Source of the DNA: Chloroflexota bacterium
GTDB taxonomy: Bacteria; Chloroflexota; Anaerolineae; Promineifilales; Promineifilaceae
Length of the DNA stretch: 64,000 bases
Assembly (NCBI GenBank): GCA_014584575.1
Contig: JACTMP010000063.1
Location: 1-64,000 of the forward strand
Direction of reading: 5' to 3'
The number at the start of each line of letters is the position of its first letter. Position 1 is the stretch's first letter. Below are positions 1,488 to 59,367 of this stretch, piece by piece. The position numbers and the translations under genes are program-made. Below the pieces are notes generated by a model. The model made no database searches and was not told the origin of the DNA. It saw nothing but the letters and a program-made list of their open reading frames with translations.

Positions 1488-1682
1488 ATGATTAAGCTCA
1501 AGGAACTAAACGTTCAATATATTACCAATGAATCCGGTGAACGCAGCGGCGTCATTCTTTCCATTGAGGATTTTGAAGCCTTATTGGAAGATTTGGAAGA
1601 CATGGCGCTCGTCGTCGAGCGCCAGCATGAACCAACCATTTCCCATGCAGAACTGAAAGCCGAACTATACCTGACAAGGTGA
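1488..1682 (+). CDS. Phd/YefM-type antitoxin-like protein (orphan)
   Basis: 64 aa. The pattern GVILSIEDFEALLEDLEDMALVVERQHEPTISHAELKAEL is typical of type II antitoxins. No toxin ORF follows; the next gene is holB. Confidence 0.45.
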   Translation: MIKLKELNVQYITNESGERSGVILSIEDFEALLEDLEDMALVVERQHEPTISHAELKAELYLTR

Positions 1683-1710
1683 CAAGGTGACATCTGACAA
1701 GGTGACAAAA
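1670..1710. repeat. tandem 8-mer array (A)GGTGACA x4 overlapping the stop of the antitoxin-like ORF
   Basis: ggtgacaaggtgacatctgacaaggtgacaaaa read directly. Confidence 0.8.
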
Positions 1711-1870
1711 ATGTCAGATTATGACCTTCGAAAAGACGCCTATCGCAATTAATAGCCCCTCTGGCTACGGCCGTTCTCCAGACCGTGCCACCCCTCTCGA
1801 AGAGGGGAGGACGACGGCCGTCGCCTAATCTCACTGGCGCCCTTGTTTGTTCCTGAAGAGTAATCGGATA

Positions 1871-1900
1871 ATTACCCAATTGCCCAATTACCCAATAAAA
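1871..1900. repeat. tandem heptamer array CCCAATT(A/G) upstream of holB
   Basis: aattacccaattgcccaattacccaat read directly. Confidence 0.7.
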
Positions 1901-1907
1901 TACCGCC

Positions 1908-2927
1908 ATGACGGATTGGCAAAACGTGATTGGGCATGGGTGGGCGGTGCAAATGCTGCGGCAGAGTCTGGCAAACGGCCGTAACGGACACGCCTACCTC
2001 ATCACCGGCCCCGACCAGGTGGGCAAGACCACGCTGGCCCGCGCCCTGGCCCAGGCGCTCAACTGCACTGGTGAGGCGGATGGCTCGTGTGGCCCCGGCC
2101 ATCTGTGCCGCGCCTGCGCCCTCATCGCCAATGACCGGTACCCCGACGTGCGTCTGGTAGAGCCAGAGGTCAGCGGCCGGGGCAAACTGACCCTGAAAAT
2201 TGAGACCATCCGCCAGTTACAGCAAGAGTTGAACCTGTCGGCGTATGAAGCCCGCACCAAAGTGGCTATCCTCAAGCGGTTTGACGCCGCCACCATTGGC
2301 GCTTCCAACGCCTTCCTCAAAACGCTGGAAGAGCCGCCGCCCCGCGTGGTGCTCATTCTCACGGCTACGGATGCTGACACTTTGCTGCCCACTATCTCCT
2401 CGCGCTGCCGCACGTTGAATTTACGGCCGTTAGCCACCGAACTGATCGAACAAAGCCTGACTACCCGCTGGCGTGTAGACGACGACACGGCCCATCTGCT
2501 GGCGCATCTGGCTGACGGCCGTCTTGGTTGGGCGGTACGGGCGGCGCAAGAGTCGGCCATTTTAGAGGAGCGGGCAGCGCATCTGGCGCAGTTGCAGGAG
2601 GCATTGGCGGGCAGCCGGGTGCGCCGTTTTCAACTGGCCGACAAACTGGCGAACAAACCGGAAGCCGCCCCCGCCGTGTTGCAGACGTGGGTGAGTTGGT
2701 GGCGGGATGTGAATTTGCTGGCGCAAAGTGGGGGAACGGGTATGGCCGCGCTGACCAACATTGACCAGCTAGACGCCATGCGCCAGACTGCCAGCCGTGT
2801 GCCGGACACGGCCGTACTCGCCAGCCTCAAACAAACCACCCTGGCCCTCTGGCAACTGGAGCATAATGCCAACGGCCGTCTCGTCCTGGAAAACCTGTTT
2901 CTCACCTATCCCTATCTGACGATGTGA
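1908..2927 (+). CDS. holB: DNA polymerase III subunit delta-prime
   Basis: 339 aa. Degenerate Walker A (GPDQVGKTT), zinc-module cysteines (CTGEADGSCGPGHLCRAC), the LKTLEEPPP box and SRC motif (TISSRCRTL). Confidence 0.85.
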   Translation: MTDWQNVIGHGWAVQMLRQSLANGRNGHAYLITGPDQVGKTTLARALAQALNCTGEADGSCGPGHLCRACALIANDRYPDVRLVEPEVSGRGKLTLKIETIRQLQQELNLSAYEARTKVAILKRFDAATIGASNAFLKTLEEPPPRVVLILTATDADTLLPTISSRCRTLNLRPLATELIEQSLTTRWRVDDDTAHLLAHLADGRLGWAVRAAQESAILEERAAHLAQLQEALAGSRVRRFQLADKLANKPEAAPAVLQTWVSWWRDVNLLAQSGGTGMAALTNIDQLDAMRQTASRVPDTAVLASLKQTTLALWQLEHNANGRLVLENLFLTYPYLTM

Positions 2928-2993
2928 TTGGTAATCGGTAATCCGTAATCGGGCTTCGGCTAACGGTTTACGGATAACGGCTCACGGATAACG
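2928..2993. repeat. tandem heptamer arrays (GGTAATC x3 then CGGATAAC-type) immediately after the holB stop
   Basis: ggtaatcggtaatccgtaatcgggcttcggctaacggtttacggataacggctcacggataacg. Confidence 0.8.
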
Positions 2994-3059
2994 AATACAA
3001 CCACCACCCCCCATTCCCGTATACCTCTGCGTAGCAATTGCTGGTAAAATGACGACATC

Positions 3060-3776
3060 ATGTTAGCTGAAGCACTGCCCACGATATTTACCTGGTACAA
3101 CCTGCCCTTCACCATCATGCTGGTTTTGTGTGGCCTGTTGGCCGTGTTCCAGTTGGTGGGCTTGGGCGGGGATGGCGACTCCGACCTGGACGCTGACTTT
3201 GACGCCGACATTGATGCCGATGTTGACCTCGACTTCGACGCCGATGCCGATCTGGATGCCGACATTGACGCCGATGCCGACCTGGATGTAGATGGCGGCC
3301 TCGATTTCTTGTCTGTGCTGGCCTTTGTGGGGGTGGGCAAAGCGCCGCTGATGGTGGTATTGGTGGTGCTGCTGGGCAGCATGGCCATCATCGGCTGGAC
3401 GCTGAACAGTCTGTTGGAGGCGGTATTGGGCAGCTATCCGGCCTGGGGGCTTCTGCTGGTTTTGCCCCTTTCCTTCCTCATCGGCGGCCTCATTTCGTCC
3501 CGCGTGGCTCGTGTGATTGGTCGCGCGCTGCCCTCGATTAGCAGTACGGCTACCAGCGCCGCCGGGCTGGTGGGGCGGCGTGGCGCGGTTATCAGCCCGC
3601 GCCTGGATAGCCGGTATGGCCTGGTGCGCGTGCGCGACCAGGGCGGCACCCTGATCAACGTCTTTGCCATTACCGCCGGCGAGGAGCCAATTGACGGTAA
3701 GTCAGAAGTGGTGCTGGTTGAGTATGACGCGGCCAACAGACGGTACACGGCCGTGCCCATTGACAAAAAAGTGTAA
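3060..3776 (+). CDS. NfeD-like / YqiJ-like OB-fold membrane protein with acidic D-A-D repeat loop
   Basis: N-terminal TM segment, a (DADxDADxD)n acidic tract, two more TM segments, and a C-terminal OB-fold-like soluble domain ([22 protein letters not shown]...EVVLVEYD). Sits directly upstream of the flotillin gene, the conserved yqiJ-yqiK arrangement. Confidence 0.6.
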
Positions 3777-3818
3777 CGCGATTTTCCAAATCGCCTTACC
3801 ATTGCACAGGAGGAACCC

Positions 3819-5867
3819 ATGCAAGTCTTAATTCCCGCAGCCATCATTTTCGTGGCCGTCTTATTTAGCATCATCCTTTTTTTCTCCATCTTGCGCGCCT
3901 ACGTCAAGACGCCGCCCAACCGCGCTTTTGTGCGCACCGGCGGACTGGGCCGCGCTACGGCTCCGCCCAAAGTGGTGATGAACGGCGGTGGCTGGGTCTT
4001 CCGCACCATCCACGAGCTGACCTGGGTAGATCTGAACACCATGGCCATTGAAATTGAGCGCACCGGCGAAACGGCGCTACTCACCATTGATCCGCAATAT
4101 GCGGACATCAAAGTCATCTTTTACATCAAAGTAAGCCCCACCATTGATGGCATCGTAGACGCCGCCCGCACCATTGGCGGCAAGCAGGTGGATGGGGCGA
4201 CGGTAAAAGAATTGGTGGACGCCAAACTGGATGGCGCACTGCGTGACGTAGCCGCCACCTTCACCCTGATGAGCCTGCATCAAGAGCGGGAAAAGTTTAT
4301 TGAGGAAGTGCAAAACCGGCTCAAAGCCGACCTGGAAGAAAACGGCCTGACGCTGGAATCCGTCTCCATTCTCACCCTGCGCGCCGCCCGGCAAGGCTCC
4401 TTTGGTACCGATGACGTGTTCGGCGCGCAGGTAGCCCGCGCCAATGCTCAGGTGATCCAGCAGGCGTTGCGCGAGCGTAACGACATTGAGCGCAAGATGG
4501 AAATTGAGATTAAAAAGAAAGACACGGAAACGGCCCGCCAGCGGTTAGACCTGGATCGTGACCTGGCGCTGGCGGCGGCCACGCAGGAACGAGAAGTGCG
4601 CACCATGCAGGCCACGGAAAAAGCCAATGCCGACCACAAGGTTTTTGAAGAAGAGCAAAAATCTGAGCAGGCGCGCATTGGCAAGGAGCGGGCGGTGGCG
4701 CTCTTGGAAATGCAAAAAGCGCAAGAACTGGCTGTGCAAAATGAGCGCAACCAGCAAGAGGTCATGTCTACGGAACTGACCCGCCGCCAGACGTTGGAAC
4801 TGGCCGATCAGCAGCGGCAAATTGCCCTGGTGCAGGCGGAACAGGAACGGGAGCGGGCCGAGCAAGAACGGCTGCTGGTTTTAGCCAAACGCGAGGAAGC
4901 CGCCCAGGCGGTGAAAACGGTGGAAGCCACCGAGCAGGCGCAGCGCGAGGCCAAGATCAGCCTGATTCAGGCGGAGCGCGAAGCGCAAAAGGCAATGATT
5001 GAGCAGAAGAATCGCATTGAGTTGGAGGCGCTGCGTAAACAACGCGAGGCGGAAGCCGAAGCGGCGGCGCTGAAAGCGCGTGCGGCAGCCGAAGCGGAAG
5101 CGGCCCTGAAGCAGGCGGAAACCATTCGCACCCAGGCGCAGGCGGAGACGGAAGCAGAAAAACTGCGCGCCGAAGCCGCCAAAGCGCAGGCGTCGGCGGT
5201 GGGTCTGGCCGATGCGGATGTGCTGCGGGCCAAGGCGGAAGCGGCCATGCAGGAAGCGGAAGCGGTGAAGGCCAAAGCGGTGGCCGAAGCGGAAGGGGCC
5301 AAAGCCAAAGCGGAGGCGCTGGCTGCCTACGATGGTGTGGCGCAGCGGGTAGAAATTTTGAAATTGCAGCTAGACGCGCAGGTACAAATTGAGGTGGCGA
5401 AGGCCGATGCGCTGGCCAAGGCGCTGGCTTCGATGAATATCAAGATGATTGGCGACCCCAATGCGGCGGCCTCGCTGCTGCGCATGGTGACGCTGTCTGA
5501 CGGCCTGGGCGAGGTGCTGAAAAATACGCCCGCGCCGGTGTTGGAAGCGGGGCAGCAGTTGCTCAACCGGATCACGGGCAACGCCGGTGATGACAGCCTG
5601 ACCAGAGCGGCGAATGGCGCGCATACCGGTACGGATGTGGCCGAACTGGCGCTGTTGGTGCCGGAGATTGTGCAAAAGGTGGAGCAGCATTTGAATGTGA
5701 ATAAGCTCAAAGGTAAGTCTGTGGGCGAGGTGTTGCAATTGCTGAGCGAAAAAGCGCCGGATGATGAAGTGGTGCAAAAGGCGCAAACGGCCGTGTCCCA
5801 ACTCCCCATTATCCGTGACCTGCCGTTTGATGATTTTTATTTAAGGGCGACAGCCGGTAATCTGTAA
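3819..5867 (+). CDS. flotillin-like SPFH/band-7 protein (YqiK-type) with long Ala/Glu-rich coiled coil
   Basis: N-terminal TM segment, SPFH domain (residues ~30-200), then ~250 aa of EAEAAALKARAAAEAEAA-type coiled coil. Operon position after the NfeD-like gene. Confidence 0.85.
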   Translation: MQVLIPAAIIFVAVLFSIILFFSILRAYVKTPPNRAFVRTGGLGRATAPPKVVMNGGGWVFRTIHELTWVDLNTMAIEIERTGETALLTIDPQYADIKVIFYIKVSPTIDGIVDAARTIGGKQVDGATVKELVDAKLDGALRDVAATFTLMSLHQEREKFIEEVQNRLKADLEENGLTLESVSILTLRAARQGSFGTDDVFGAQVARANAQVIQQALRERNDIERKMEIEIKKKDTETARQRLDLDRDLALAAATQEREVRTMQATEKANADHKVFEEEQKSEQARIGKERAVALLEMQKAQELAVQNERNQQEVMSTELTRRQTLELADQQRQIALVQAEQERERAEQERLLVLAKREEAAQAVKTVEATEQAQREAKISLIQAEREAQKAMIEQKNRIELEALRKQREAEAEAAALKARAAAEAEAALKQAETIRTQAQAETEAEKLRAEAAKAQASAVGLADADVLRAKAEAAMQEAEAVKAKAVAEAEGAKAKAEALAAYDGVAQRVEILKLQLDAQVQIEVAKADALAKALASMNIKMIGDPNAAASLLRMVTLSDGLGEVLKNTPAPVLEAGQQLLNRITGNAGDDSLTRAANGAHTGTDVAELALLVPEIVQKVEQHLNVNKLKGKSVGEVLQLLSEKAPDDEVVQKAQTAVSQLPIIRDLPFDDFYLRATAGNL

Positions 5868-5907
5868 TCGGTGGGTTGGTCATTAGTCATTGACCATTGA
5901 CCATTGG
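5856..5907. repeat. heptamer arrays (GGTAATC / GTCATTG-GACCATT) overlapping the flotillin stop codon
   Basis: ggtaatctgtaatcggtgggttggtcattagtcattgaccattgaccattgg. Confidence 0.7.
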
Positions 5908-6440
5908 AAATTGACATGGGTTTGTGGGCAAAGGTGCGGCGGGTGGTGCAAACGGCCGTGTCCGACCTGTTCAGTGAAGAATCGGACACGGCTGTGCCAG
6001 ACCAGACGACCGTGCATATTCAGGATACGCAGCGGCGGCTGGATGGCCTGAAAAATGACCTGGCGCTGGCATTGGCCCGTGAGCAGCAGGCGGAAACAGT
6101 CTGGCGCGTGGCGCAGGCGCAGGGTCAGCCCGGCGCGGCCGAATTGGAAGAGCAGCACCGGGCGTTTGCGCAAACCATTGCTGCCCTGCAAGCCGAAATT
6201 GACCGGCTACAAATCCGCCTGGCGGCCCTCACCAGCCAGTCCGCCCATCTGGCGGCGCGTGAAGACAATGTGGCGATGTTGGAACGGCTGCACACCTTGC
6301 AGCGGGAGTTAGACAAAACGGCCGTGACCCTGCACCACGAACTGGCCGACCGCGAGGAGCAAATTGCCCACCGCGAAGACATCGCCGCTGCCCGTGAGGA
6401 AATCCGCTCGGCCACAAGGCTGGGGCATGATGAACTGTAA
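5904..6440 (+). CDS. PspA/IM30-like coiled-coil protein (short)
   Basis: The N-terminus MGLWAKVRRVV...DTQRRLDGLKNDLALALAREQQAE resembles the PspA/Vipp1 family start (MGIFSRF...). All-helical. Likely start is the ATG at 5916. Confidence 0.45.
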   Translation: MEIDMGLWAKVRRVVQTAVSDLFSEESDTAVPDQTTVHIQDTQRRLDGLKNDLALALAREQQAETVWRVAQAQGQPGAAELEEQHRAFAQTIAALQAEIDRLQIRLAALTSQSAHLAAREDNVAMLERLHTLQRELDKTAVTLHHELADREEQIAHREDIAAAREEIRSATRLGHDEL

Positions 6441-6453
6441 AAGCAAGTAACAG

Positions 6454-6915
6454 ATGTTAACCCCAGAGCAACAAGCAGCCCTTGATCAATTGTTTCCGCC
6501 GGTAAAAAATGGGAATGGGCAAGGCACGGCCGTGTCTATCCCCACCTTCTTGTCTGACCCGCTGCAAGTCTGGTTGGGTGTATCCGGTGAGCAGGTGCAG
6601 GCGTATCTGGACGCTTTTTTTCAGCAGCGAGATACCTGGGAGGGCCGTTTTCTGGATTGGGCCGAAAGTAATCCCATGGAATCTGCTTTTGGTTTCCTGG
6701 GTGCGGCCGCAGCCGCTTTTTACGCTGCCGAACGGGTGGAGAACCCCAAAATCAACACTTTTATAGACGCCTTTTATTACATCGCCACCTGCGCCTCGGT
6801 GGGTTATGCCGACGTGTTTGCCGTCACCCAAACCGGCAAAGCCATCGCCTCTATGGTGATGGTGATTGGCCCTGGCCTGGCCGACCGTGCCTTGAATCGC
6901 CCTGTTTCCCGGTAA
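6454..6915 (+). CDS. small two-TM ion-channel-like protein (K-channel Ion_trans_2-like, filter SVGYAD)
   Basis: FYYIATCASVGYADVFAVTQTGKAIASMVMVIG resembles a pore helix plus T(V/I)GYGD-like selectivity filter and an inner helix. Confidence 0.45.
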   Translation: MLTPEQQAALDQLFPPVKNGNGQGTAVSIPTFLSDPLQVWLGVSGEQVQAYLDAFFQQRDTWEGRFLDWAESNPMESAFGFLGAAAAAFYAAERVENPKINTFIDAFYYIATCASVGYADVFAVTQTGKAIASMVMVIGPGLADRALNRPVSR

Positions 6916-6958
6916 TCCGTAATCCGTAGTTCGTAATCCGTAATCCGTGATCCGTGAG
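6910..6958. repeat. heptamer array CGTAATC x5 overlapping the channel-gene stop
   Basis: ggtaatccgtaatccgtagttcgtaatccgtaatccgtgatccgtgagcg. Confidence 0.8.
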
Positions 6959-7030
6959 CGGTCATAGTGACCTGGATGTGACTTCTGGCACATCTGTTGT
7001 GCGGGCACGGCCGTTAGACTGATGTTGTCG

Positions 7031-7085
7031 TGTCATGTGCCATGTGTCAAGTGTCAAGTTACCTGACACATGACACATGACACAA
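7031..7085. repeat. inverted heptamer arrays (TGTCAAG x4 / TGACACA x3) forming a long hairpin; overlaps the annotated 5' end of the ABC ATPase ORF
   Basis: tgtcatgtgccatgtgtcaagtgtcaagttacctgacacatgacacatgacac. Confidence 0.75.
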
Positions 7086-8066
7086 AAAACTTCCAGGAGA
7101 AAGATGATGAATGTGATTGTAGAAACTCTTGATTTGCGGAAACAGTATAACCCGCCGGAAGGGCCGGAGGCGGTGAAGGGGGTTTCCTTTTCCATCCGGC
7201 AGGGGGAGATTTTTAGCCTGTTAGGGCCAAATGGCGCGGGTAAAAGCACGACCATTGCCATGCTCAGTGGGCTGCTGGCCCCCACCGGCGGCGAGGCGGT
7301 GATTGATGGTCATGCCATCACCCGCGACGCGAAAGCGGTGAAGCAGGTGATCGGTGTGGTACCGCAAGAGATCGCCCTGTATGAGGCCATCAGCGCCCGC
7401 GAAAATTTGCAGTTTTGGGGGCGGATGTATGGGCTGCGGGGCGAGGAATTGAAGCAAAGGGTCACGGCCGTGCTCGATATTGCCGGTTTGTCTGACAGAG
7501 CCAATGACAAGGTATCCACCTTTTCCGGCGGCATGAAGCGGCGCATCAACATCGCTGTGGGGCTGCTGCACAATCCCAAAGTGCTGTACATGGATGAACC
7601 AACGGTGGGCATTGATCCGCAAAGCCGCCGCCGTATTCTGGACACGGTGCAAGAGCTAAACCGGCAGGGGCTGACGGTGCTGTATACCACCCACTACATG
7701 GAAGAAGCCGAGGAACTCAGCCACCGCATCGGCATTATTGATCATGGCGAGTTGATTGCCCTGGGTACACTGGCGGAACTGACGGACATGGTAGGGCATT
7801 ACGATACCATCCGACTGGACGTGGGGCTGCCCGATGGCGCCAACGGCGAGCTGCGGCAGGCGTTAGCTTTGCTGCCCGGTATTCACCAGGCGGATGGGGA
7901 CGCCGACGGCCGTGTCATCCTGCAAACCGAAGACGCCAATGCCATCTTGCCCACCGTCATCCAGCACATTGCCGGGGAGGGGCTGCCCATTCGCAAGCTG
8001 GAAATTCAAGAGCCGAACCTGGAAGCGGTATTCCTGCATTTGACGGGGCGGGCGTTAAGAGACTGA
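7077..8066 (+). CDS. ABC transporter ATP-binding protein (ABC-2/DrrA-like)
   Basis: Walker A (GPNGAGKST), signature (FSGGMKRR), Walker B (LYMDEPT). True start is probably ATGATGAATGTG near 7104, after an AGGAGA RBS, because 7077-7085 is repeat sequence. Confidence 0.85.
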   Translation: MTQKTSRRKMMNVIVETLDLRKQYNPPEGPEAVKGVSFSIRQGEIFSLLGPNGAGKSTTIAMLSGLLAPTGGEAVIDGHAITRDAKAVKQVIGVVPQEIALYEAISARENLQFWGRMYGLRGEELKQRVTAVLDIAGLSDRANDKVSTFSGGMKRRINIAVGLLHNPKVLYMDEPTVGIDPQSRRRILDTVQELNRQGLTVLYTTHYMEEAEELSHRIGIIDHGELIALGTLAELTDMVGHYDTIRLDVGLPDGANGELRQALALLPGIHQADGDADGRVILQTEDANAILPTVIQHIAGEGLPIRKLEIQEPNLEAVFLHLTGRALRD

Positions 8067-8140
8067 CAATTGGCAATTATCAATTGAAAATTGCGCGTGG
8101 TTCATAAGGCGAGATTTGTCCTTTACAAATTAGCTGCAAT

Positions 8141-8228
8141 TGTCATTCCGAGCGTAGTCTTCGGAGCGAGGAATCCCGCTCCTGCACCAGAGGTAGGGAT
8201 TCCCCCTCGAAGACTCGTCGGAATGACA
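8141..8228. repeat. MITE-like 88 nt palindromic element, copy 1
   Basis: TGTCATTCCGAGCG..GTCTTCGGAGCGAGGAATCC ... GATTCC..CTCGAAGACTCGTCGGAATGACA. Terminal inverted repeats with internal complementarity. A second copy lies at 35513-35600. Confidence 0.7.
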
Positions 8229-8273
8229 CGGTGACGTGGAATATGTAAAAATATGCCGGTAGTTTTCTGAACC

Positions 8274-9581
8274 ATGCCGAAAATTATCAATTTTGGAGAG
8301 GTAGTGATGCGAATTTTAGCGATTGCCTGGAAAGATTTGAGTATTACGTTTCGGGATCGGAATGCGCTGTTTTTGATGATTCTGGCGCCGTTGGTGTTGT
8401 CGTTCATTATTGGCGCATCGTTTGGTAACTTTTTGATCGGCGGCAGCAGCGTGCCCTTTGACCAGATTCCGGTGCTGGTAGTGAATGACGATGCCGGCGA
8501 CATGGGGCAGCAGTTTGTGGCTACTATGCAGGCAGGCGAACTGGCCGACCTGCTGCTGGTGACGCAGATGGATGACCTGGACGAGGCGCGGGCCATTGTG
8601 CAGCAGGGGGACGCGCGGGCAGCGGTGCATATTCCGGCGGGGTTTTCTACGGCCGTGCGCGGCGAAACCCCGGCCACATCCCCCACCATCATCGCCTTTT
8701 ACGCCGATCCCACCGCCACCCTTACGCCAAACATTGTGCGCGGCATTGTGGTGCGCATCACCAACAGCTTTAACACCGGCGCCATTGGGGCGCAGGTGAC
8801 GGTAGAGCAGTTGATGGGGCAAACGGCCGTGTTGGGGCCGGCATTAGCGCAGTTAGGGGCCGTGCTGGAGGAACAAATTGGGTCGCAGATGGAGCAGGGT
8901 AACGGCCGTGCCGCCAACGGCCGTGCCGCGATCACATTACGCCAGCTTACGGTGGGTGAAATTGAAGAACCGTTGGAAATCAGCCCCTTTGCCTTTTTTG
9001 CGCCCAGCATGGGCATCCTTTTCCTCATGTTTGCCATGATGGACAGCACCCGCTCCATCCTGGAAGAAGAGCGAGAAGGCACGCTGCCCCGGCTGCTGAC
9101 CACGCCCATTGCGCATAGCGAATTGTTGTTGGGCAAAGTGGGCGGCGTTTTTGTGGCGGGCATTATCCAGTTTGTGGTCTTTGTGGTGGCCTCGCGGTTG
9201 TTGTTTCAGCTAAATTGGGGCCATTCGGCGTCCGGGTTGGCGCTGATGGTGCTGGCGATTGTGCTGGCCTACACCGGCCTGGGGCTGCTTATTGCCGCCT
9301 TTGCCAGAGACGTGAACCAGGCCGCCATTTTCGGTTCGGTCATTTCGCTGGTATTTGCGGCGTTGGGGGGCAATTTTGTCAACGCGCAGAATTTCCCGCC
9401 CTGGCTGGATCAGTTGAGCAAGATCACCATCAACCGCTGGGGCATTGATGGCCTGACGGCGCTGACCATTTACGACGGCGGCCTGAACGACGTTTTATTA
9501 CCGGCGGCCATTTTATTGAGCATTGGCGACCTGTTTTTCCTGCTGGCGCTGTGGCAGTTTGGCCGGCGGATAAAGAGGTAA
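8274..9581 (+). CDS. ABC-2 family transporter permease
   Basis: N-terminal TM segment, a large extracytoplasmic loop, then a C-terminal six-TM ABC-2 bundle. Follows the ABC ATPase. Likely start is the ATG at 8307 (MRILAIAWKDL). Confidence 0.7.
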   Translation: MPKIINFGEVVMRILAIAWKDLSITFRDRNALFLMILAPLVLSFIIGASFGNFLIGGSSVPFDQIPVLVVNDDAGDMGQQFVATMQAGELADLLLVTQMDDLDEARAIVQQGDARAAVHIPAGFSTAVRGETPATSPTIIAFYADPTATLTPNIVRGIVVRITNSFNTGAIGAQVTVEQLMGQTAVLGPALAQLGAVLEEQIGSQMEQGNGRAANGRAAITLRQLTVGEIEEPLEISPFAFFAPSMGILFLMFAMMDSTRSILEEEREGTLPRLLTTPIAHSELLLGKVGGVFVAGIIQFVVFVVASRLLFQLNWGHSASGLALMVLAIVLAYTGLGLLIAAFARDVNQAAIFGSVISLVFAALGGNFVNAQNFPPWLDQLSKITINRWGIDGLTALTIYDGGLNDVLLPAAILLSIGDLFFLLALWQFGRRIKR

Positions 9582-9622
9582 CTGGGTAATTATCCAATCA
9601 CGTGTCTTCTCAATATCTCGTG

Positions 9623-9668
9623 GAGGAGTGCGCATCCTCAGATGCGCATCTGAGGATGCGCACTCCTC
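9623..9668. repeat. 46 nt perfect palindrome (CATCCTCAGATGC family) between the two permease genes
   Basis: gaggagtgcgcatcctcagatgcgcatctgaggatgcgcactcctc, verified as its own reverse complement. Confidence 0.85.
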
Positions 9669-9725
9669 TCACCCCCATTTATTGAGATGATACCAATTAC
9701 CCAATTACATTCTTGAGGATAAACC

Positions 9726-10961
9726 ATGTTACGCAATACATTCGACATGATGATTCATTACCTGCGGTTGACGTATGGGGAGCGGTCTACATTGATTTTT
9801 CAGATTGCCATGCCGCTGTTGTTTACCTTTCTGGTGGGGCAGGCGACCGGCGGTTTTGGCGGCGGCGGCACTATCAGCAGCACGGCCGTTACCTGGACGG
9901 TGGCGGTGGTGAATGAGGACGGGGGCGCGTATAGCACGCTCCTGGTGGACGGGTTGCAGGCCGACCCGACGTTGGTGGTGGCGCCGGTGGCTGATGAGGA
10001 CACGGCCGTGACGCAAGTCGAAGACGGCACGGTTACGGCGGCGCTGGTCATTCCGGCGGCGTTCAGCCAGCAGTTAGCTGCCGGGCAGGGGGCGAACCTG
10101 GATTTCTACAGCGACCCGGCCAATACGCGCCAGGTGCAGCCGGTGCAAGAGGCGGTCAACGCCGCCATCAGCCAGTTGCAGGGGGCGCTGACGGCAGCGG
10201 CCATTTCCGCAGGCACGGCGGCCGAATTGGGTCTGTTTGACCAGGGCGTTGAACCGGTAGATTACCGGCTGGCCGCCGTACAATTGGCGCAAACAGCCTG
10301 GCAGCATCCGCCCACGGCCGTGCAAATCAACGAAGACGAACTGGTCATCAGCGTCACCGACATCATCCCCAACGGCATTAACCAATCCTCGCCGGGCATG
10401 ATGGCTATGTTTGCCACTTTCGGCATGTTGGGCGGGGCGGCCGTGCTGATTCAGGAGCGGCAGTGGGGCACACTGCGGCGGCTGGCCGTCATGCCCATTC
10501 GCAAAGGCAGCATTATTGGCGGCAAACTGATGGGCATTGTCACCGCCGGTGTCCTGCAAATGGTCATTCTCATTATCGCCGGGGCGCTGCTGTTTCGTGT
10601 GGCCTGGGGCAATTCCCCGGCGGCGCTGGCGCTGATGGTGGTCAGTTTTGCCCTGGCGATGTCTGGTCTGGGTATGATGATGGCGGCGTTGGTGAAGACG
10701 ATTGCCCAGGCCAATGCGCTGGGCACGGTGCTGGTGTTGTCCATGTCCGCCTTGGGTGGCGCCTGGTGGCCGCTGGAGATTGTGCCGGACTGGCTGCAAA
10801 CGGTGGGCAAACTATCACCAATTTACTGGGCGATGAGCGGCTTTCAGGACATTATCACGCGGGGGTGGGGGGTGACGGCCGTGCTGCCGGAAGTGCTGGT
10901 GTTGATGGGCTTTACGGCCGTGTTCCTGGTCATCGGTCTCTGGCGCTTCAAATACGAGTGA
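9726..10961 (+). CDS. ABC-2 family transporter permease (second)
   Basis: Same architecture as 8274..9581: N-terminal TM, loop, C-terminal TM bundle. Confidence 0.7.
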   Translation: MLRNTFDMMIHYLRLTYGERSTLIFQIAMPLLFTFLVGQATGGFGGGGTISSTAVTWTVAVVNEDGGAYSTLLVDGLQADPTLVVAPVADEDTAVTQVEDGTVTAALVIPAAFSQQLAAGQGANLDFYSDPANTRQVQPVQEAVNAAISQLQGALTAAAISAGTAAELGLFDQGVEPVDYRLAAVQLAQTAWQHPPTAVQINEDELVISVTDIIPNGINQSSPGMMAMFATFGMLGGAAVLIQERQWGTLRRLAVMPIRKGSIIGGKLMGIVTAGVLQMVILIIAGALLFRVAWGNSPAALALMVVSFALAMSGLGMMMAALVKTIAQANALGTVLVLSMSALGGAWWPLEIVPDWLQTVGKLSPIYWAMSGFQDIITRGWGVTAVLPEVLVLMGFTAVFLVIGLWRFKYE

Positions 10962-10968
10962 TGGGTGA

Positions 10969-11002
10969 GCCGTGACGGCCGTAGCGCGCTACGGCCGTCA
11001 CG
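10969..11002. terminator. 34 nt perfect palindrome built from two ACGGCCGT octamers, directly after the permease stop
   Basis: ccgtgacggccgtagcgcgctacggccgtcacgg. Confidence 0.5.
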
Positions 11003-11198
11003 GCTTACGAATTACTCATGGCACGGCCGTGAAACTGTGTTATACTCCTGCCTGTCCTCCGCAAGGAGGATAGTTTTATTATCAACATGGTTTGGAAATT
11101 ACCAATTGGATGCCCGCCCAGGTTGGCCGGGCATTTTTTGTGGCAGCAGGATGGCTCTTACGTAATGGGACGGGCTGGCTGTGAGTCCGCAAAGGGCA

Positions 11199-11256
11199 GA
11201 GATTCGAGATTCGAGATTGGTAAATCTCCAATCTCGAATCTCCAATCTCCAATCTC
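11199..11256. repeat. inverted heptamer arrays GAGATTC/GAGATTG and reverse complement (hairpin) upstream of the helicase start
   Basis: gagattcgagattcgagattggtaaatctccaatctcgaatctccaatctccaatctc. Confidence 0.8.
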
Positions 11257-11272
11257 AACACGTAGGAGCAAC

Positions 11273-15593: not shown

Positions 15594-15613
15594 TTTTTCA
15601 CCCTATCACTATT

Positions 15614-16887: not shown

Positions 16888-16928
16888 ATAATTGGGTAAT
16901 TACTAAATTACCCAATTACTCAATTACC
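16888..16928. repeat. near-palindromic heptamer array (GGGTAATT / AATTACC) between convergent or adjacent genes
   Basis: aataattgggtaattactaaattacccaattactcaattacc. Confidence 0.75.
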
Positions 16929-19056: not shown

Positions 19057-19065
19057 GAATCACAC

Positions 19066-20935: not shown

Positions 20936-20940
20936 CTGTT

Positions 20941-35500: not shown

Positions 35501-35512
35501 TCAACGATGCCT

Positions 35513-41929: not shown

Positions 41930-41936
41930 TCCGGCA

Positions 41937-48888: not shown

Positions 48889-49497
48889 ATGGCTGAACTA
48901 CAGGAAGAGTTTAAGATCGCCGATCTGGAGAGCCTGAAAGCGATCACCAACCCTCTGCGACTGCAACTGCTGGAGCGCTTAAAGCGTGCGCAAACGGTCA
49001 AAGAGCTGGCGGCGGCGCTGGATATGCCGCCGACGAAGTTGTATTACCACGTCAACCTGCTCGAAGAAAAAGGGTTTATTCAAGTGGTGGATACACAAAT
49101 CGTCTCTGGAATCATTGAAAAACGGTATCAGGCAGTGGCCCGCCAATATCACATTGATGAAAAGATGTTGGCGACCAGCGAGGATGAAGGGCAGATCGCG
49201 GCGCTGCTGCGGTCGTTTTTTACCATGGCGCAGCGCGAACTTGAGCAGAGCATTCGCGCCGGGCTGGTTGACCTAAAGGAAAAAGGGAAACCACACAAAG
49301 GCAGCCTGCTGCGAGCCAAATTGCATTTGTCCGAAGACCAGGCCAGAGCGTTTTACGGCCGTTTTGAAGACCTGCTGCAAGAATACAACACTCTTTCCAG
49401 GGAAAACGAAGCGGATCCACAAATCCAGCTTTATGCCCTGACCCTGGCCTATTTCCCTGTCTATTCGCCTGATGAGTCGGTGATCGGTAGTCAGTAA
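48889..49497 (+). CDS. ArsR-family winged-HTH transcriptional regulator with C-terminal extension
   Basis: ITNPLRLQLLERLKRAQTVKELAAALDMPPTKLYYHVNLLEEKGFI is the ArsR/SmtB HTH signature. Confidence 0.5.
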   Translation: MAELQEEFKIADLESLKAITNPLRLQLLERLKRAQTVKELAAALDMPPTKLYYHVNLLEEKGFIQVVDTQIVSGIIEKRYQAVARQYHIDEKMLATSEDEGQIAALLRSFFTMAQRELEQSIRAGLVDLKEKGKPHKGSLLRAKLHLSEDQARAFYGRFEDLLQEYNTLSRENEADPQIQLYALTLAYFPVYSPDESVIGSQ

Positions 49498-49520
49498 TCG
49501 GTGATCGGTAATCGGTGATT
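49479..49520. repeat. heptamer array GGTGATC/GGTAATC overlapping the regulator stop
   Basis: ggtgatcggtagtcagtaatcggtgatcggtaatcggtgatt. Confidence 0.8.
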
Positions 49521-52532: not shown

Positions 52533-52598
52533 ATGGAAGAAAGCCCGGCGAATAAATTCGCGGCAACGCCAGCAAAGACCGCCTTCGCGGTCTTTCTC

Positions 52599-52640
52599 TC
52601 ACTGCTCACTGCTCACTGCTCACCGCTCACCGCTCACTGC
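52599..52640. repeat. heptamer array CTCACTG/CTCACCG x6 (reverse complement of the AGTGAGC family at 33518)
   Basis: ctcactgctcactgctcactgctcaccgctcaccgctcactgc. Confidence 0.85.
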
Positions 52641-54574: not shown

Positions 54575-55223
54575 ATAAAACGACGATAAAACGTTTGGGG
54601 CCGTGGACGCCCACGGCCATTGTTTGTTCGATGTCGGCCGTTTTGCTGGGGCCGCTGATGAAGTTCAAATTGGCCGGTAGCTGCCGGTTGAAGCTGGCCG
54701 TCCAGGTGAACAGGTCGGTGGTAAGCACGGCCGTCGAAACCAGTGCCATATGTACCGGCGGCAGCAGCGAAACCAGGCGGCTTTTGCCCGGCCCACTGGT
54801 GACGATAATCGTGCCGGTCTCCGCCAGCGCAGCATCCGCGCAGGTCAGCCCGGCGTCGGCGCTGGCGCAAAAGTCGCGCAGCGCCGCATCGTCTTGCCCC
54901 ACCTGGTGGTAGGTGATGTGGGGCAGGCGGGGCAGATTGTGCAACGGCCGTTCGTCATTCAACACCACCTTCTCCGCCTCCATTTGTCGCAAAAGCTGGT
55001 TGGCCTGGTCATAGGCCGCTGCCAGACTGTCCACCTGATGCACTTCCCCTTTCACGGCCGTGAGCGCCTGCACAAACCGCGCCGCCAGATCAGGAAAATC
55101 CCGTCGTGACTGCCAGGGTGGGGGCAGCGGTTCATCTCGTCTGGCCTGTTTTAGGCGTCCTAAAATTTCGTCGCGTGGGTTCATCGGTTCGTGATGCGTG
55201 ATGCGCGAGAGGTCACGCATCAC
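54567..55223 (-). CDS. lutC: LutC/YkgG-family (LUD domain) protein
   Basis: Size and pattern (…HxxxS…GTIIVTSGPG…RLVSLLPPVHMALV…) match the LUD/DUF162 family from memory. Confidence 0.55.
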   Translation of the reverse strand: MMRDLSRITHHEPMNPRDEILGRLKQARRDEPLPPPWQSRRDFPDLAARFVQALTAVKGEVHQVDSLAAAYDQANQLLRQMEAEKVVLNDERPLHNLPRLPHITYHQVGQDDAALRDFCASADAGLTCADAALAETGTIIVTSGPGKSRLVSLLPPVHMALVSTAVLTTDLFTWTASFNRQLPANLNFISGPSKTADIEQTMAVGVHGPKRFIVVLYA

Positions 55224-55225
55224 GC
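55191..55225. repeat. inverted TGATGCG heptamer hairpin (same family as 33211)
   Basis: gtgatgcgtgatgcgcgagaggtcacgcatcacgc. Confidence 0.75.
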
Positions 55226-55228
55226 CAG

Positions 55229-57109: not shown

Positions 57110-57127
57110 AAGGTGTTACCTCGTTGG

Positions 57128-57196
57128 GGTTGCAGGTTGCAGGTTGCAGGTTGCAAGTGGCAGGTTGCAAGTGGCAGGTTGCAAGTAGTAGGTTGC
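57128..57196. repeat. heptamer array GGTTGCA/AGTGGCA (left flank of the four-helix-bundle gene)
   Basis: ggttgcaggttgcaggttgcaagtggcaggttgcaagtggcaggttgcaagtagtaggttgc. Confidence 0.85.
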
Positions 57197-57221
57197 TTTC
57201 TGCCTGCCATTTGTAACCTGA

Positions 57222-57662
57222 CTAACCTTTCTTCCAACGGCGTTGTTGGTCAATGACGATAATGAGATTGGCGATGATTTCATCTGCCAGCCCAAAGCGG
57301 TGATTGAGCAATTCTGGTTCAAAAACATGGCGGCCCCGGTAGTACCAACCTCTGGTCTCCCTGGCCGAACCAAGTGAAATTTTCAGGAAACGAGCATAAT
57401 CTTTACCATAACCCCGCCCAAAGCCTTCTTCAATGTTGGCAGCAATTGATCCGGAGCTATCAATAAGTTGCCAGGCGACCCCTCTGCCACGCTCATCGGC
57501 CAACAGCTTTTCGCTATCAAACCAGGCCAGGTCTGATAAGAACAATGCCAGGCGGTATGTCTTGAAATCCCATAACGAATCCTTCGTGATACTTTGCGGT
57601 ACCTGTGCTAACCACTCCTCATATTTCTTAAAACCCATGCCACCTCCTGAAAAAACAGCCAC
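57222..57662 (-). CDS. four-helix-bundle protein (23S rRNA intervening-sequence-protein family)
   Basis: SIAANIEEGFGRGYGKDYARFLKISLGSARETRGWYY matches the family signature (…SIPANIAEG.gR….F..A.GS..E….). Likely start is the internal ATG at 57638, which has a GGAGGTG SD. Confidence 0.55.
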   Translation of the reverse strand: MAVFSGGGMGFKKYEEWLAQVPQSITKDSLWDFKTYRLALFLSDLAWFDSEKLLADERGRGVAWQLIDSSGSIAANIEEGFGRGYGKDYARFLKISLGSARETRGWYYRGRHVFEPELLNHRFGLADEIIANLIIVIDQQRRWKKG

Positions 57663-57701
57663 TTGTCACCTGCCACTTGCCACCTGCCACCTGCCACTTG
57701 C
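57659..57701. repeat. heptamer array CCACTTG/CCACCTG (right flank; reverse complement of the left-flank array)
   Basis: ccacttgtcacctgccacttgccacctgccacctgccacttgc. Confidence 0.85.
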
Positions 57702-59185
57702 TACTCCACCTTCCCCTCCGCCCACAATTGGCGGAACGGTTTGGGGGCCAGGGAGGGCAGGGCACGGCCGTCGCCCACATTCACCGGCAGTTTTAAGCCA
57801 TCGTCGTGTTGGAACGGCCATTGCCCCCAGCGTCCCAGTTTTGTAAAAAAATTCATTCGCCCCTCGCTGCCCAGCACAAAGGCGGCAAACTCCTCTGCTT
57901 TGCGTTCACGCCAGGGCAGCAGGTGGGCGGCGACTTCATCCTGGCGCAGTTGCAGCAGCATCCGGGGCAGGTCAATGCGCGCCGGGCAGGCATCTTTGCA
58001 GGCGCCACAAAGGGTGCTGGCCTGGGGTAGGGCGGCATACTCTTCCAGACCAAAGAGCAGCGGCGTCACCACCGCCCCCACCGGCCCGCTGTAGGGGCTG
58101 CCATAGGCGTGGCCGCCCGCTTTTTTGTAGACCGGGCAGACGTTCAGGCAAGCCCCACAGCGGATACATTGCAGGATTTCTTCGTAAGGCGTACCGGCAA
58201 GCTGGCTACGGCCGTTGTCCAGCAAAATGATATGCACTTCTTCCGGCCCGTCGGGCTCGTCGGTGCGGCGGTCGCCGGAACGGCGGGGGCCGGTGATGGC
58301 GGTGGTGTAAATGGACATCGGTTGGCCGGTGGCGCTGCGCGCCAGCAGCGCCAGCCAGGTGGCGGCGGCGTCCCAATCCGGGCAAATTTTTTCAATGCCC
58401 ATGATGGCAATGTGAACGGGGGGCGCGGAGGTGACCAGACGGCCGTTGCCCTCGTTTGTCACCAGCACCAGCGTGCCCGTTTCGGCAATGCCCAGGTTGC
58501 CGCCGCTGATGCCCAGACCCGCGGCGAGGAATTGGGTGCGCAACATGCGCCGCGCTTCGGCGGTGAGGCCATCAATATCGTCGGCGGGTAACGGCCGTCC
58601 CACCTCTTTGCTAAACAGTTCAGCCACCTGGTGGCGCGTCTTGTGGATGGCCGGGCCGATGATGTGCGACGGCGGCTCACCGGCCAACTGGATGATCCAT
58701 TCGCCCAGGTCGGTCTCCACCGGTTCAATGCCGTTGGCCTCCAGCGCCGCGTTCAGGTGAATTTCCTCGGTAACCATGGATTTGCTTTTGGTTACCAGTT
58801 CCACGCCGCGCTGCCGGGCAATGCCCAGCACCACATCTACCGCATCCTGTCCGGTTTGCGCCCAATGCACCTGCGCCCCCGCGGCCGTGGCCCGCTGCTC
58901 AAACAGTTCCAGGTAATGGGCCAGGTTGGCCAGCGTGGCGGCGCGGATTTTTTTGAAGTGGTCGCGCAAGGCGTTGGCGTCGGGCAGTTCGGTGAGAGCG
59001 GAGGTACGGCCGTTGACAAACGTGTTGGTGGCTCCGGTTAGCGCCCCTTGCAGGTGAACATCGGCAATGGCGACGGTGGCGCTGTGCCGAAATTGGGACA
59101 TGGTGGCCGATTGGGGTACAGACATATTCCTCAAGGTAGCCCGGTGGCAGCCCCACCGCAGCGTGTAGTTTATGATGGTCGGCAA
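57701..59185 (-). CDS. lutB: LutB-like iron-sulfur protein (two 4Fe-4S ferredoxin motifs + DUF3390-like C-terminus)
   Basis: CIRCGACLNVCPV and CGACKDACPARI cysteine clusters, size ~494 aa, N-terminal LUD-like domain. Confidence 0.7.
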   Translation of the reverse strand: MPTIINYTLRWGCHRATLRNMSVPQSATMSQFRHSATVAIADVHLQGALTGATNTFVNGRTSALTELPDANALRDHFKKIRAATLANLAHYLELFEQRATAAGAQVHWAQTGQDAVDVVLGIARQRGVELVTKSKSMVTEEIHLNAALEANGIEPVETDLGEWIIQLAGEPPSHIIGPAIHKTRHQVAELFSKEVGRPLPADDIDGLTAEARRMLRTQFLAAGLGISGGNLGIAETGTLVLVTNEGNGRLVTSAPPVHIAIMGIEKICPDWDAAATWLALLARSATGQPMSIYTTAITGPRRSGDRRTDEPDGPEEVHIILLDNGRSQLAGTPYEEILQCIRCGACLNVCPVYKKAGGHAYGSPYSGPVGAVVTPLLFGLEEYAALPQASTLCGACKDACPARIDLPRMLLQLRQDEVAAHLLPWRERKAEEFAAFVLGSEGRMNFFTKLGRWGQWPFQHDDGLKLPVNVGDGRALPSLAPKPFRQLWAEGKVE

Positions 59186-59321
59186 TTTTAGTGGGAGATG
59201 GCGATTTTACAAAATGAATCAATCGCCCCGAATGTGTTGTTTTGTTATACTCGCCCTGCTTCAAGACCCTGGCGGTTTCAAAAAATCTTAGGAACGCGAA
59301 GTAAATAACCTACAGGAGAAT

Positions 59322-59367
59322 GGAGATTAGAGATTGGAGATTGAACCAATCTCTAATCTCCATTCTC
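59322..59367. repeat. inverted GAGATTA/GAGATTG heptamer hairpin (same family as 29020 and 11199)
   Basis: ggagattagagattggagattgaaccaatctctaatctccattctc. Confidence 0.8.

Follow-up and report, generated by a model that had tools for sequence, protein, structure and literature searches.

Cyanobacterial short tandemly repeated repetitive (STRR) sequences, reportedly described by Mazel and colleagues in 1990, are said to consist of the heptamers CCCCAGT, TTGGTCA and CAACAGT (STRR1-3). Hairpin pairing is, to our knowledge, not a described feature of these elements. Here, we report tandem heptamer arrays, many of them arranged as inverted pairs, in the spacers between the genes of a Chloroflexota bacterium (Anaerolineae; Promineifilaceae). 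The analysis covers a contiguous stretch of 64,000 nt (GenBank assembly GCA_014584575.1, contig JACTMP010000063.1, positions 1-64,000), referred to as the window. We consider these arrays, with a probability of roughly 55%, to be slippage-generated heptamer repeats that have been made palindromic and are confined by selection to intercistronic spacers.

Among the systems described so far, the GGGAATC repeats of Xanthomonas come closest; they comprise 186 arrays, 89-93% of them intergenic and nearer to the upstream open reading frame (ORF) (Rehm et al., 2015, PMC4692102). About 40% of these arrays form convergent inverted pairs with the G-rich arm first; their position is kept between species while length and sequence vary, they are rare between divergent genes, and their function is unknown (PMC4692102). 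Heptamer repeats of the type GGGGA(C/T)T have also been described in Nostoc (PMC4692102). The TAACTGA repeats of marine Beggiatoaceae, cyanobacteria and Bacteroidetes occur as 2-6 intergenic copies, most of them a few nucleotides upstream of start codons and some inside operons, and have been proposed as binding sites of a translational regulator; they have a single unit and only one indirect repeat among 170 sets (MacGregor, 2015, PMC4679880). More generally, among long simple sequence repeats (LSSR) with units of 5-11 nt, heptanucleotides are the most abundant class in repeat-rich prokaryotes, with a non-coding bias, a sporadic lineage-specific distribution and polymerase slippage as the proposed origin (Mrazek, 2007, as summarized in PMC4679880 and PMC4692102). 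A different kind of intergenic repeat is represented by the repetitive extragenic palindromic (REP) elements of proteobacteria and their composites BIME and REPIN, imperfect palindromes of fixed sequence and about 20-40 nt in length, for whose spread RAYT transposases are responsible (PMC3116915).

Tandem heptamers are a specific feature of the lineage

Arrays were called using Tandem Repeats Finder and a self-match scan of periods 4-12 at a single threshold. Tandem Repeats Finder returned about 30 arrays of period 7 or 8 between positions 1672 and 59367. The self-match scan yielded 0, 0, 0, 20, 5, 0, 0, 0 and 1 arrays for periods 4 to 12, and dinucleotide-preserving shuffles of the window gave 0-0.2 arrays at the same threshold. 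A first-pass annotation of the window, which had described dispersed tandem heptamers paired in many cases into strong hairpins at gene boundaries and had suggested a period-7 scan, was thus borne out by Tandem Repeats Finder, the period scan and folding, at the positions it had given. Its count of more than 25 intergenic sites was too high: merging the paired arms left 22 sites (about 30 arrays).

The units found in the window are of at least eight types, including GGTAATC, GAGATTG, CGTGATG, AGTGAGC and GTGTCAT, and some units are 8-mers. The six families named in the first-pass annotation are all present, and the same families are found again at far-apart loci, as it had noted. They are not independent of each other, because arrays switch their unit in register: at 33518-33569 the unit changes from AGTGAGC to GGTGAGC and then to GGTTATC, and in the relative L016 AGTGAGC units continue into GGTAATC units. 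About half of the sites share a core, GT[GA]A, which is repeated at +7, +14 and +21 exclusively in spacers. A common ancestral unit behind all families was considered and rejected, as this core covers only about half of the sites.

This diversity sets the window apart from Xanthomonas, where one family of G-tract units with G-quadruplex potential is found. The present units, in a different phylum, are of at least eight types, some of them 8-mers, and mostly without G-tracts; the units (the five named above and others) contain no run of GGG. In having several tandem heptanucleotide families dispersed in the intergenic DNA of one genome, the window resembles the cyanobacterial STRR and Nostoc systems. 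Units of the STRR1-3, Nostoc, Xanthomonas and Beggiatoa repeats are all missing from the window, in the case of STRR1-3 down to the level of a tandem dimer in any rotation on either strand. The comparison with STRR drawn in the first-pass annotation therefore holds for the form only, because the host is a member of the Chloroflexota instead of a (heterocystous) cyanobacterium and no STRR unit is present; these are not STRR in the strict sense. With the LSSR class the arrays share 7 nt as the dominant unit length, a length beyond chance and a unit number that varies between related genomes. LSSR, however, denotes a class and not a mechanism, palindromic pairing lies outside its definition, and Chloroflexota are not among the richest genomes in what PMC4679880 and PMC4692102 relate of it.

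The array sequences are 100% identical in Logan contigs of many independent sequencing runs. Since the Logan contigs from exact-protein lookups are 99.95-100% identical to the window and one window protein is also present on a 221-kb NCBI contig, the arrays are not assembly artefacts. This possibility, raised in the first-pass annotation, was rejected on account of the identical sequences in many independent assemblies and of related arrays at orthologous sites in other species. Short-read contigs repeatedly break inside arrays or palindromes (at 1699, 10972, 21970, 26081, 29047, 29051/29053, 33548, 57696 and 59333), which is a technical effect of palindromic repeats on assembly. A CRISPR-like array was also rejected, given the 7-nt period and the lack of spacers, and scans of the window with Rfam (gathering thresholds) and for tRNAs gave no matches.

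Across the loci compared, the excess of period 7 is restricted to the close clade, with 31 period-7 arrays vs 1 period-6 array in 187 kb; more distant loci contain 19 period-7 and 23 period-6 arrays in 885 kb. The excess is thus specific and lineage-wide. The closest genomes to an array-adjacent protein are metagenome-assembled genomes of Chloroflexota/Anaerolineae (labelled Ardenticatenaceae or Promineifilaceae) with 77-91% amino-acid identity. One clone of this uncultured-type organism is found in many unrelated SRA/DRA runs with 99.95-100% identity over up to 14 kb (contigs L001-L012 and L092-L109), and only L095 (97.5%) and L096/L097 (99.9%) deviate.

Arrays fill the space between stop codon and next start

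We placed the arrays on a gene map built from database gene calls and Pfam domains. In 21 of the 22 sites the array is intergenic or straddles a stop codon, in a window of which spacers make up only about 9%. Sorted by class, 17 spacers between co-directional genes, one divergent spacer and neither of the two usable (non-overlapping) convergent spacers carry arrays. A stop codon is abutted or overlapped at 13 of 22 sites, nearly all of which have the used stop (TAA, TGA or TAG) within an array unit; among the genes concerned are holB, flotillin, the channel gene, gpmI, the BTAD regulator and the HTH_20/ArsR gene, in agreement with the first-pass annotation. Twelve of 22 sites finish no more than 30 nt from the next start codon, usually right before a GGAG-type ribosome-binding site (RBS). 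Hence, the typical array extends from the stop codon to just before the next RBS and fills the spacer edge to edge. It is mainly the 5' arm that contains stop triplets, and of 14 arms on the stop side, 10 leave no reading frame open. The genes linked to arrays are housekeeping and metabolic.

The Xanthomonas repeats are similar in that they, too, are tandem heptamers at dispersed sites, about 90% of which are intergenic; most separate co-directional ORFs and are nearer to the end of the upstream one. They differ in that the present arrays typically reach from the stop codon to the next RBS and co-occur with several families of non-repetitive palindromes. The position of many arrays just upstream of start codons, including intra-operon sites, recalls the TAACTGA repeats; unlike these, the arrays of the window are built from many different units and are mostly paired, with the C-rich complement as the arm next to the start.

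Units containing ATG or GTG had evidently affected gene calling. Out of five starts suspected as mis-called in the first-pass annotation, four are indeed over-extended and were moved downstream (ABC ATPase from 7077 to 7107, helicase from 11087 to 11273, FtsX from 24909 to 24861 and an ORF from 29046 to 29088); the fifth, that of a membrane-fusion protein (MFP) gene, is right and is discussed below.

Because arrays lie inside evident operons (macA-macB, ABC ATPase-permease-permease and lutB..lutC, as judged from gene order), they must be transcribed. This bears on the terminator role considered plausible in the first-pass annotation. Strong stems, the 13 of 22 sites abutting stops and the T-runs that follow the pairs 33210-33256 and 59315-59367 would fit Rho-independent terminators at gene 3' ends. 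Such a T-tail is, however, missing in 8 of 10 pairs, and one of the two T-tailed pairs, at 59315, sits between divergent genes. Consensus terminator matches were obtained in the range 1-20 kb, none of them overlapping an array; canonical short elements of GC stem and U-tail are located separately beside arrays at 11052-11073 and about 52560-52590. Termination would moreover be harmful within transcription units as inferred from gene order, and the two usable convergent spacers hold only modest hairpins. As an account of the arrays, terminators are thus very improbable, and termination is unlikely as their general role.

The proximity of 12 of 22 arrays to a start codon (within 30 nt), together with the BTAD regulator encoded in the window, would also agree with binding sites for a protein or the ribosome, namely for a translational regulator (the proposal made for the TAACTGA repeats), a SARP/BTAD-type regulator recognizing heptamer direct repeats or, as standby sites, the 3' tail of 16S rRNA. 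The unit GGTGATC would presumably pair with GAUCACC, which we take to belong to the conserved 16S 3' end. Against this, units of at least eight types are present in one genome, and closely related species have different units at the same junction. Moreover, the arm next to the start is in most cases the C-rich complement, which would mimic the rRNA tail and not pair with it. Binding sites are therefore a very doubtful explanation. A SARP-type operator in particular was rejected for its spacing, as SARP sites are understood to be heptamers at 11-nt spacing and not contiguous 7-nt arrays (PMC5930380, in part).

Paired arrays fold into strong hairpins

Folding, as proposed in the first-pass annotation, gave -24 to -42 kcal/mol for the paired arrays (z -5.3 to -8.9), with the weak pair 2930-2997 (z -1.1) as an exception, whereas single arrays do not fold (z -0.2 to -1.1). 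The five hairpins it had singled out are real (21941-22015, 24874-24913, 29020-29078, 33210-33256 and 59315-59367). Its perfect stems of 20-35 bp were confirmed as strong stems, but only those of 19-22 bp are perfect (24874, 33210, 59316), and stems of 25-30 bp are 83-92% complementary. At 24874-24913 and 59316-59367 the unit variants are mirrored between the arms, which indicates that the arms are copies of each other.

Pooling the window with 11 close loci, 51 of 88 arrays (about 58%) have an inverted partner at a distance of up to 45 nt. Of 29 pairs, 27 have a G-rich 5' arm and a C-rich 3' arm, whichever strand is read, although some of the 29 are orthologous and not independent. The extent of pairing, the arm order and the 13 of 22 sites abutting a stop all have their parallel in the Xanthomonas pairs. 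Pairing, by which the first-pass annotation had set the arrays apart from STRR, is therefore no departure from known systems, since about 40% of the GGGAATC arrays are already convergent inverted pairs (PMC4692102).

A sliding-window analysis of minimum free energy in spacers and coding controls did not discriminate at this GC content, and the number of perfect stems was used instead. Perfect stems of at least 11 bp were counted 14 times in about 6.5 kb of spacer, once in 57.5 kb of coding sequence and never in shuffles. Seven of the 14 spacer stems are heptamer arrays and seven are ordinary palindromes.

These counts, and stems that end right before an RBS or start codon, would be expected if RNA stem-loops between cistrons were selected and heptamer slippage was merely the way in which they are built. 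Such stems could serve in mRNA 3'-end protection, RNase III-type processing, differential expression of cistrons or the coupling of termination and reinitiation, with stop and start joined at the base of the stem. Stems selected in mRNA should carry G.U-compatible imperfections on the transcribed strand, and we compared sense and antisense folding for 44 hairpins with known gene orientation on this rationale. The sense strand was more stable in 13 cases, the antisense strand in 22 and both were equal in 9 (Wilcoxon p 0.06), a direction opposite to that of selection at the mRNA level; sense/antisense folding of the 44 hairpins thus gave no sign of selection on mRNA structure. The absence of a strand signature fits a process at the DNA level that keeps the arms Watson-Crick complementary, combined with random decay. 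Selected stems are also at odds with the about 40% of arrays that are unpaired and do not fold, and with the one pair in a divergent, promoter-type spacer.

Hairpins are exchanged, remodelled and lost between species

The gene order gpmI-orf178-orf1174-(68-aa ORF)-orf509-orf96-orf1271 is kept in five relatives and the string MFP-FtsX-PMI-DUF1349-ABC-DMT in two or three, which allows single junctions to be followed. In six species, the spacer between gpmI and orf178 always consists of the stop codon, a perfect hairpin, about 10 nt and the ATG. In the window a heptamer pair forms this hairpin, whereas each relative has one of two non-repetitive palindromes that are unrelated to it. At the orf1174 stop, a paired heptamer array is present in all six species, with CGTGATG in four and a CCGTAAC-type unit in two, both arms having changed. 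The macA-macB junction has paired arrays of three different units in three species and no spacer in a fourth. In front of orf509 the array varies from about 2 to about 9 AGTGAGC-type units by species, and arm lengths vary between species at further orthologous sites. All orthologous hairpins fold strongly (z -3.9 to -9.7). The junction DUF1349-ABC carries a GCGGAGA-type pair in two relatives; in the window it is split by a CfrBI restriction-modification cassette.

This cassette (17950-20283) encodes a CfrBI-type restriction endonuclease and an N6/N4 methyltransferase and has a low GC3; its flanks are without arrays. It probably represents a recent insertion, because it is missing from the syntenic regions of L110 and L111, contains no copy of the octamer ACGGCCGT that is abundant in the rest of the window (see below), and is not flanked by arrays. 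The array-free flanks of this recent arrival agree with the reading that we prefer.

Hairpins kept in place while their sequence is wholly replaced, as at gpmI-orf178, macA-macB and the orf1174 stop, are an argument for the selected stem-loops introduced above. Since some species have no spacer at the same junction, however, the hairpins are dispensable. Taking both sides together, we regard selection for RNA stems as possible, but clearly less probable than the reading that we prefer.

The first-pass annotation had also called the arrays hotspots of slippage and rearrangement. Over evolutionary time this is supported by the change from about 2 to about 9 copies at one orthologous site and by the loss or gain of a whole paired block between strains. 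Strain L095, with 97.5% identity in the adjacent gene, lacks a 109-nt block (59290-59398, plus strand), which is located in a divergent spacer of the window and has TAGG direct repeats at its edges. The block folds as a whole into a single long hairpin, the tip of which is formed by the GGAGATT pair. The core is the paired GGAGATT/AATCTCC array at 59315-59367 with a perfect stem of 22 bp; the 81-nt hairpin 59305-59385 reaches -42.5 kcal/mol (z -8.9) and is followed by a T-tail. Palindrome-stimulated deletion between short direct repeats is an established mechanism. The difference in L095 can be explained in two ways, by insertion of a palindromic unit with a 4-bp duplication or by palindrome-stimulated deletion between short repeats.

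Insertion would point to miniature mobile palindromic elements of the REP/REPIN or MITE type, inserted whole into intercistronic hairpins or spacers by an enzyme acting in trans. In addition to the block itself, the swap of unrelated palindromes at one junction, the recurrence of unit families at distant loci and the occurrence of the ACCTGACAGGT family and of an 85-nt element at non-orthologous junctions (see below) speak for this explanation. On the other hand, deletion accounts equally well for the indel, and the flanks of the block are unique: no second copy was found in any locus compared. Copies of a family differ in unit number and variants and grade into other families in register, unlike transposed copies, and the 64-kb window contains no transposase or RAYT-like gene. 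We therefore consider mobile elements an unlikely source of the arrays.

Survey of the remaining sites

From 1672 to 11256 all arrays are on the plus strand. Two single 8-mer arrays precede holB: 4.8 copies of TGACAAGG (1672-1708) in the 742-nt spacer upstream of the gene, and 3.4 copies of the C-rich type AATTACCC (1870-1896) 11 nt 5' of its ATG at 1908. Two nucleotides past the holB stop begins the imperfect pair mentioned above for its weak fold, with three GGTAATC followed by five ACGGATA (2930-2997). The flotillin stop TAA (5865-5867) is in the second unit of a GGTAATC/TGTAATC array that continues into 2.7 copies of CATTGAC (5856-5906) and ends 9 nt from the next ATG at 5916. A single array of GTAATCC (x6.6, 6912-6957) has the channel-gene stop TAA in its first unit and closes all three frames. 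It is followed by a GTGTCAT/TGACACA pair (7030-7084; -33.4 kcal/mol, z -6.6) 22 nt before the ABC ATPase ATG at 7107. Two copies of CCAATTAC (9693-9708) are situated 17 nt before the permease ATG at 9726 and adjoin an unrelated palindrome at 9623-9668. On the stop of the second ABC-2 permease (10961) lies a degenerate period-7 palindrome with a GTGA core every 7 nt and 31-nt arms that are 87% complementary (10956-11017). The pair GAGATTC/AATCTCC (11199-11256; -33.4 kcal/mol, z -8.0) ends 16 nt before the ATG of the DEAD helicase at 11273.

The next sites belong to the minus strand. Arrays of 8-mers of the GGGTGAA and AAAAGTGA types (15585-15632) include the stop of pantothenate kinase (15614-15616), and a paired 8-mer array GTAATTGR/AATTACCC with a perfect 13-bp stem (16889-16927) includes the ABC_tran stop (16916-16918) and ends 28 nt before the next ATG at 16869. 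The paired array of the GGTAATC family at 21941-22015 (-35 kcal/mol, z -5.8) has the FtsX stop TAG in its first unit and leaves 13 nt to the PMI ATG at 21927. Within it, short-read contigs break off at 21970. Inside the macA-macB type operon, a paired 8-mer array with a perfect 20-bp stem (24870-24914; -26 kcal/mol, z -8.9) fills the space from the HlyD/MFP stop (24910-24912) to the FtsX ATG at 24861.

On the plus strand, a GAGATTG/CAATCTC pair (29017-29078; -34.8 kcal/mol, z -5.5) begins at the gpmI stop and leaves only 9 nt to the ATG at 29088. The pair CGTGATG/TCACGCA (33210-33256; -36.2 kcal/mol, z -7.8) has a perfect 19-bp stem, the T-tail TTTTGT and, in its second unit, the stop TGA of the BTAD regulator (33219-33221). 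The composite array that runs from AGTGAGC over GGTGAGC to GGTTATC and ends in 4.6 copies of CACGTGT (33518-33611) holds the stop of a 68-aa ORF and ends 12 nt before the ATG at 33624. This ORF (33330-33536) has no Pfam match and is located in an apparent spacer of 400 nt that separates the BTAD regulator from the following gene. Five relatives share it at the DNA level, and the AGTGAGC array contains its stop. A single array of six TCGGTRA units (49477-49519) contains the stop TAA (49495-49497) of the HTH_20 (ArsR-like) gene in the third unit.

Back on the minus strand, six copies of CAGTGAG (52598-52640) form a single array with the alcohol dehydrogenase (ADH) stop TGA in the first unit, and a separate, terminator-like GC hairpin follows at about 52560-52590. 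A CGTGATG pair (55190-55227; -23.8 kcal/mol, z -5.3) separates the transporter stop (55229) from the LUD gene; here, the database gene call begins inside the array at 55220 and the next in-frame ATG is at 55184. Two further arrays are complementary to each other: a G-rich arm of seven AGTGGCA/GGTGGCA units (57658-57705), which holds the lutB-like stop TAG and ends 19 nt before the ATG of a PF05635 gene, and a C-rich arm of ten GCAACCT/GCCACTT units (57128-57196), 18 nt before the transporter ATG at 57109. The PF05635 gene (23S_rRNA_IVP, four-helix bundle; 57222-57638, minus strand) is located exactly between them. It looks as if a paired array separating the lutB-like and transporter genes had been split, with this gene in its loop. 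A metagenome scan with the transporter protein found only one close relative (L137), which is not syntenic upstream. At the end of the window (61090-64000, continuing into L095-L097), a protein with an EAD7 domain is followed by two large nSTAND1 NTPases with an FGE-sulfatase domain and WD40 repeats, respectively, which looks like a STAND-type conflict or signalling locus.

The only coding array keeps its length

The sole coding array of the window (26074-26112, minus strand) consists of 5.6 TACCGAT/CACCGAT units. Their in-frame translation, HHRSPITDHRLPIT, is part of the N-terminal tail of the HlyD/MFP protein, which is conserved. The start of this gene had been suspected as mis-called. The N-terminal extension (M-KKQ...FF..WERS), however, is conserved even in homologues of 58-68% identity. 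In three relatives the array is found at the same codons and with about the same length, with the unit TACCGAT, TAC[CT]GCT or TACCATT. Its length is constant in homologues of 76-88% identity (P0001-P0006), and its sequence is identical in all clone samples. This is a case of concerted evolution under reading-frame constraint.

A 7-nt unit shifts the frame when gained or lost, and an array that is located, like this one, near the 5' end of the MFP coding sequence could therefore act as a phase-variation (contingency) switch. The constant length across species argues against phase variation at 26074-26112, as does its identity in all clone samples. Furthermore, the genes next to the arrays are housekeeping and metabolic, and nearly all arrays are noncoding and downstream of any promoter position. 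Switching by unit gain or loss is hardly credible as a general explanation.

Upstream of the MFP gene, motifs of the form ACGGAT(T)n with a spacing of 9-11 nt were observed in three species (26233-26285 in the window, 9054-9108 in L111 and 2228-2258 in L112). This periodicity is distinct from that of the heptamers.

Other palindromes and an abundant octamer

Several families of non-repetitive palindromes were observed besides the arrays. One family is of the ACCTGACAGGT type (35164 and 41323). Perfect hairpins of 14-15 bp with the structure (A)GACCTGACAGGTTT-loop-AAACCTGTCAGGTC, including AAGACCC...GGGTCTT variants, are found at 35164-35195, 41323-41356, 39477-39510 and 41936-41971 and also in L015, L016 and L018; they lie in spacers, at non-orthologous junctions across species, and their behaviour is REP-like. 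Palindromes built on GCATCCTCAGATGC/GCATCTGAGGATGC with the flanks GAGGAG...CTCC occur at 9623-9668 and 29636-29687, one of them with a perfect 23-bp stem. A long-hairpin element of about 85 nt, TGTCATTCCGAG...GGAATC...GATTCC...CTCGGAATGACA, is present in co-directional spacers at 8140-8222 and 35512-35594. Related copies were detected in L017, L018, L020 and L137, and short-read contigs break at 8163.

REP elements stabilise upstream mRNA and modulate the expression of neighbouring cistrons. The window is similar to REP/BIME systems in its abundant intercistronic palindromes within operons and at gene ends. It differs from REP/REPIN in that the arrays are tandem short units of varying number, and in that the window has no RAYT gene.

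The palindromic octamer ACGGCCGT is by far the commonest octamer, with 140 copies in 64 kb (e.g. at 1767, 1814, 10975, 10991 and 42712), whereas base composition would predict 1.65. Coding sequence holds 123 of the 140. Its density is 1.6-2.8 per kb in close relatives (L013-L018, L020, L021, L110 and L111 also carry the octamer) and about 0-0.14 per kb in more distant Chloroflexota loci. This abundance resembles the HIP1 (GCGATCGC) phenomenon of cyanobacteria, where, as here, a hyper-abundant octameric palindrome exists alongside heptamers. In the literature searched, we found no description of heptamer arrays or of an iterated palindrome of the ACGGCCGT type in Chloroflexota.

Discussion

In the reading that we prefer, the arrays would arise in several steps. 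First, replication slippage would build the arrays and constantly remodel them, a mechanism suggested by the species comparison: all units of an array drift together to a new sequence by concerted evolution, and the copy number differs between species. Second, inverted duplication or intra-strand template switching would make and maintain the palindromes, as the mirrored pattern of the arms suggests; template switching is known to perfect quasi-palindromes. Third, purifying selection would leave arrays only in the spacer from stop codon to RBS between co-directional genes, where they do little harm, in line with the placement observed. With the G/T/A-rich arm first and TAA, TGA or TAG usually in all frames, the upstream ORF ends in the first units. 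Finally, paired arrays would give rise to mRNA stems of 19-30 bp that act as punctuation inside operons and not in transcription termination, for example as a barrier to 3' exonucleases, as a processing site for double-strand-specific RNases or by uncoupling translation. Stems of 19-30 bp fall within the size range of substrates of double-strand-specific RNases, and 3' exonucleases are known to be blocked by them. For this reason intra-operon punctuation is a likely consequence of the paired arrays, as we infer from their length and position.

A number of points weigh against this reading. At gpmI-orf178, three unrelated hairpins share the same stop-to-start position in six species, which slippage alone explains less easily than selection for a hairpin as such or a targeted insertion of palindromic elements. 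The bias for the G-rich arm first (27 of 29 pairs) is only loosely explained; the supply of stop codons at the gene end or the avoidance of a transient C-rich Rho-loading site are speculative reasons. Moreover, the sole difference at the strain level is a whole TAGG-bounded palindrome of 109 nt and not a change in unit number. Within the clone, every contig is 100% identical across many runs, so that slippage was not seen directly and array change is slow on this scale. The consequences at the RNA level, too, are all inferred.

A more far-reaching idea, which we regard as improbable, would unite the arrays, the other intercistronic palindromes and ACGGCCGT as the footprint of one lineage-specific DNA-maintenance system, linked to repair and template switching or to methylation, that builds and homogenises palindromes. 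Stop-to-start hairpins would then have been co-opted as obligatory operon punctuation that couples the termination of one cistron to the initiation of the next. If true, the Chloroflexota would have their own version of the association of HIP1 with STRR, itself unexplained, in cyanobacteria, and a shared cause would be suggested.

Heptamer repeats are the dominant class of long simple sequence repeats in repeat-rich prokaryotes, and after decades both their function and their cause, i.e. why the unit is 7 nt, are unsettled. The lineage studied here is informative in this respect, as one genome contains many unit families and the same junction can be traced in related species as its units are replaced, its copy number changes, one hairpin takes the place of another or everything is lost, while the in-frame array shows the effect of purifying selection on such a repeat. 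The presence of the organism in many public sequencing runs makes tests with metatranscriptomes and long reads feasible. In practical terms, the arrays fragment short-read assemblies and mislead gene callers, since their units contain ATG or GTG as well as stop codons. Altogether, the arrays are an ordinary member of a known repeat class, with no new mechanism; they are of value mainly for the comparative series that they offer and for occurring together with a HIP1-like octamer.

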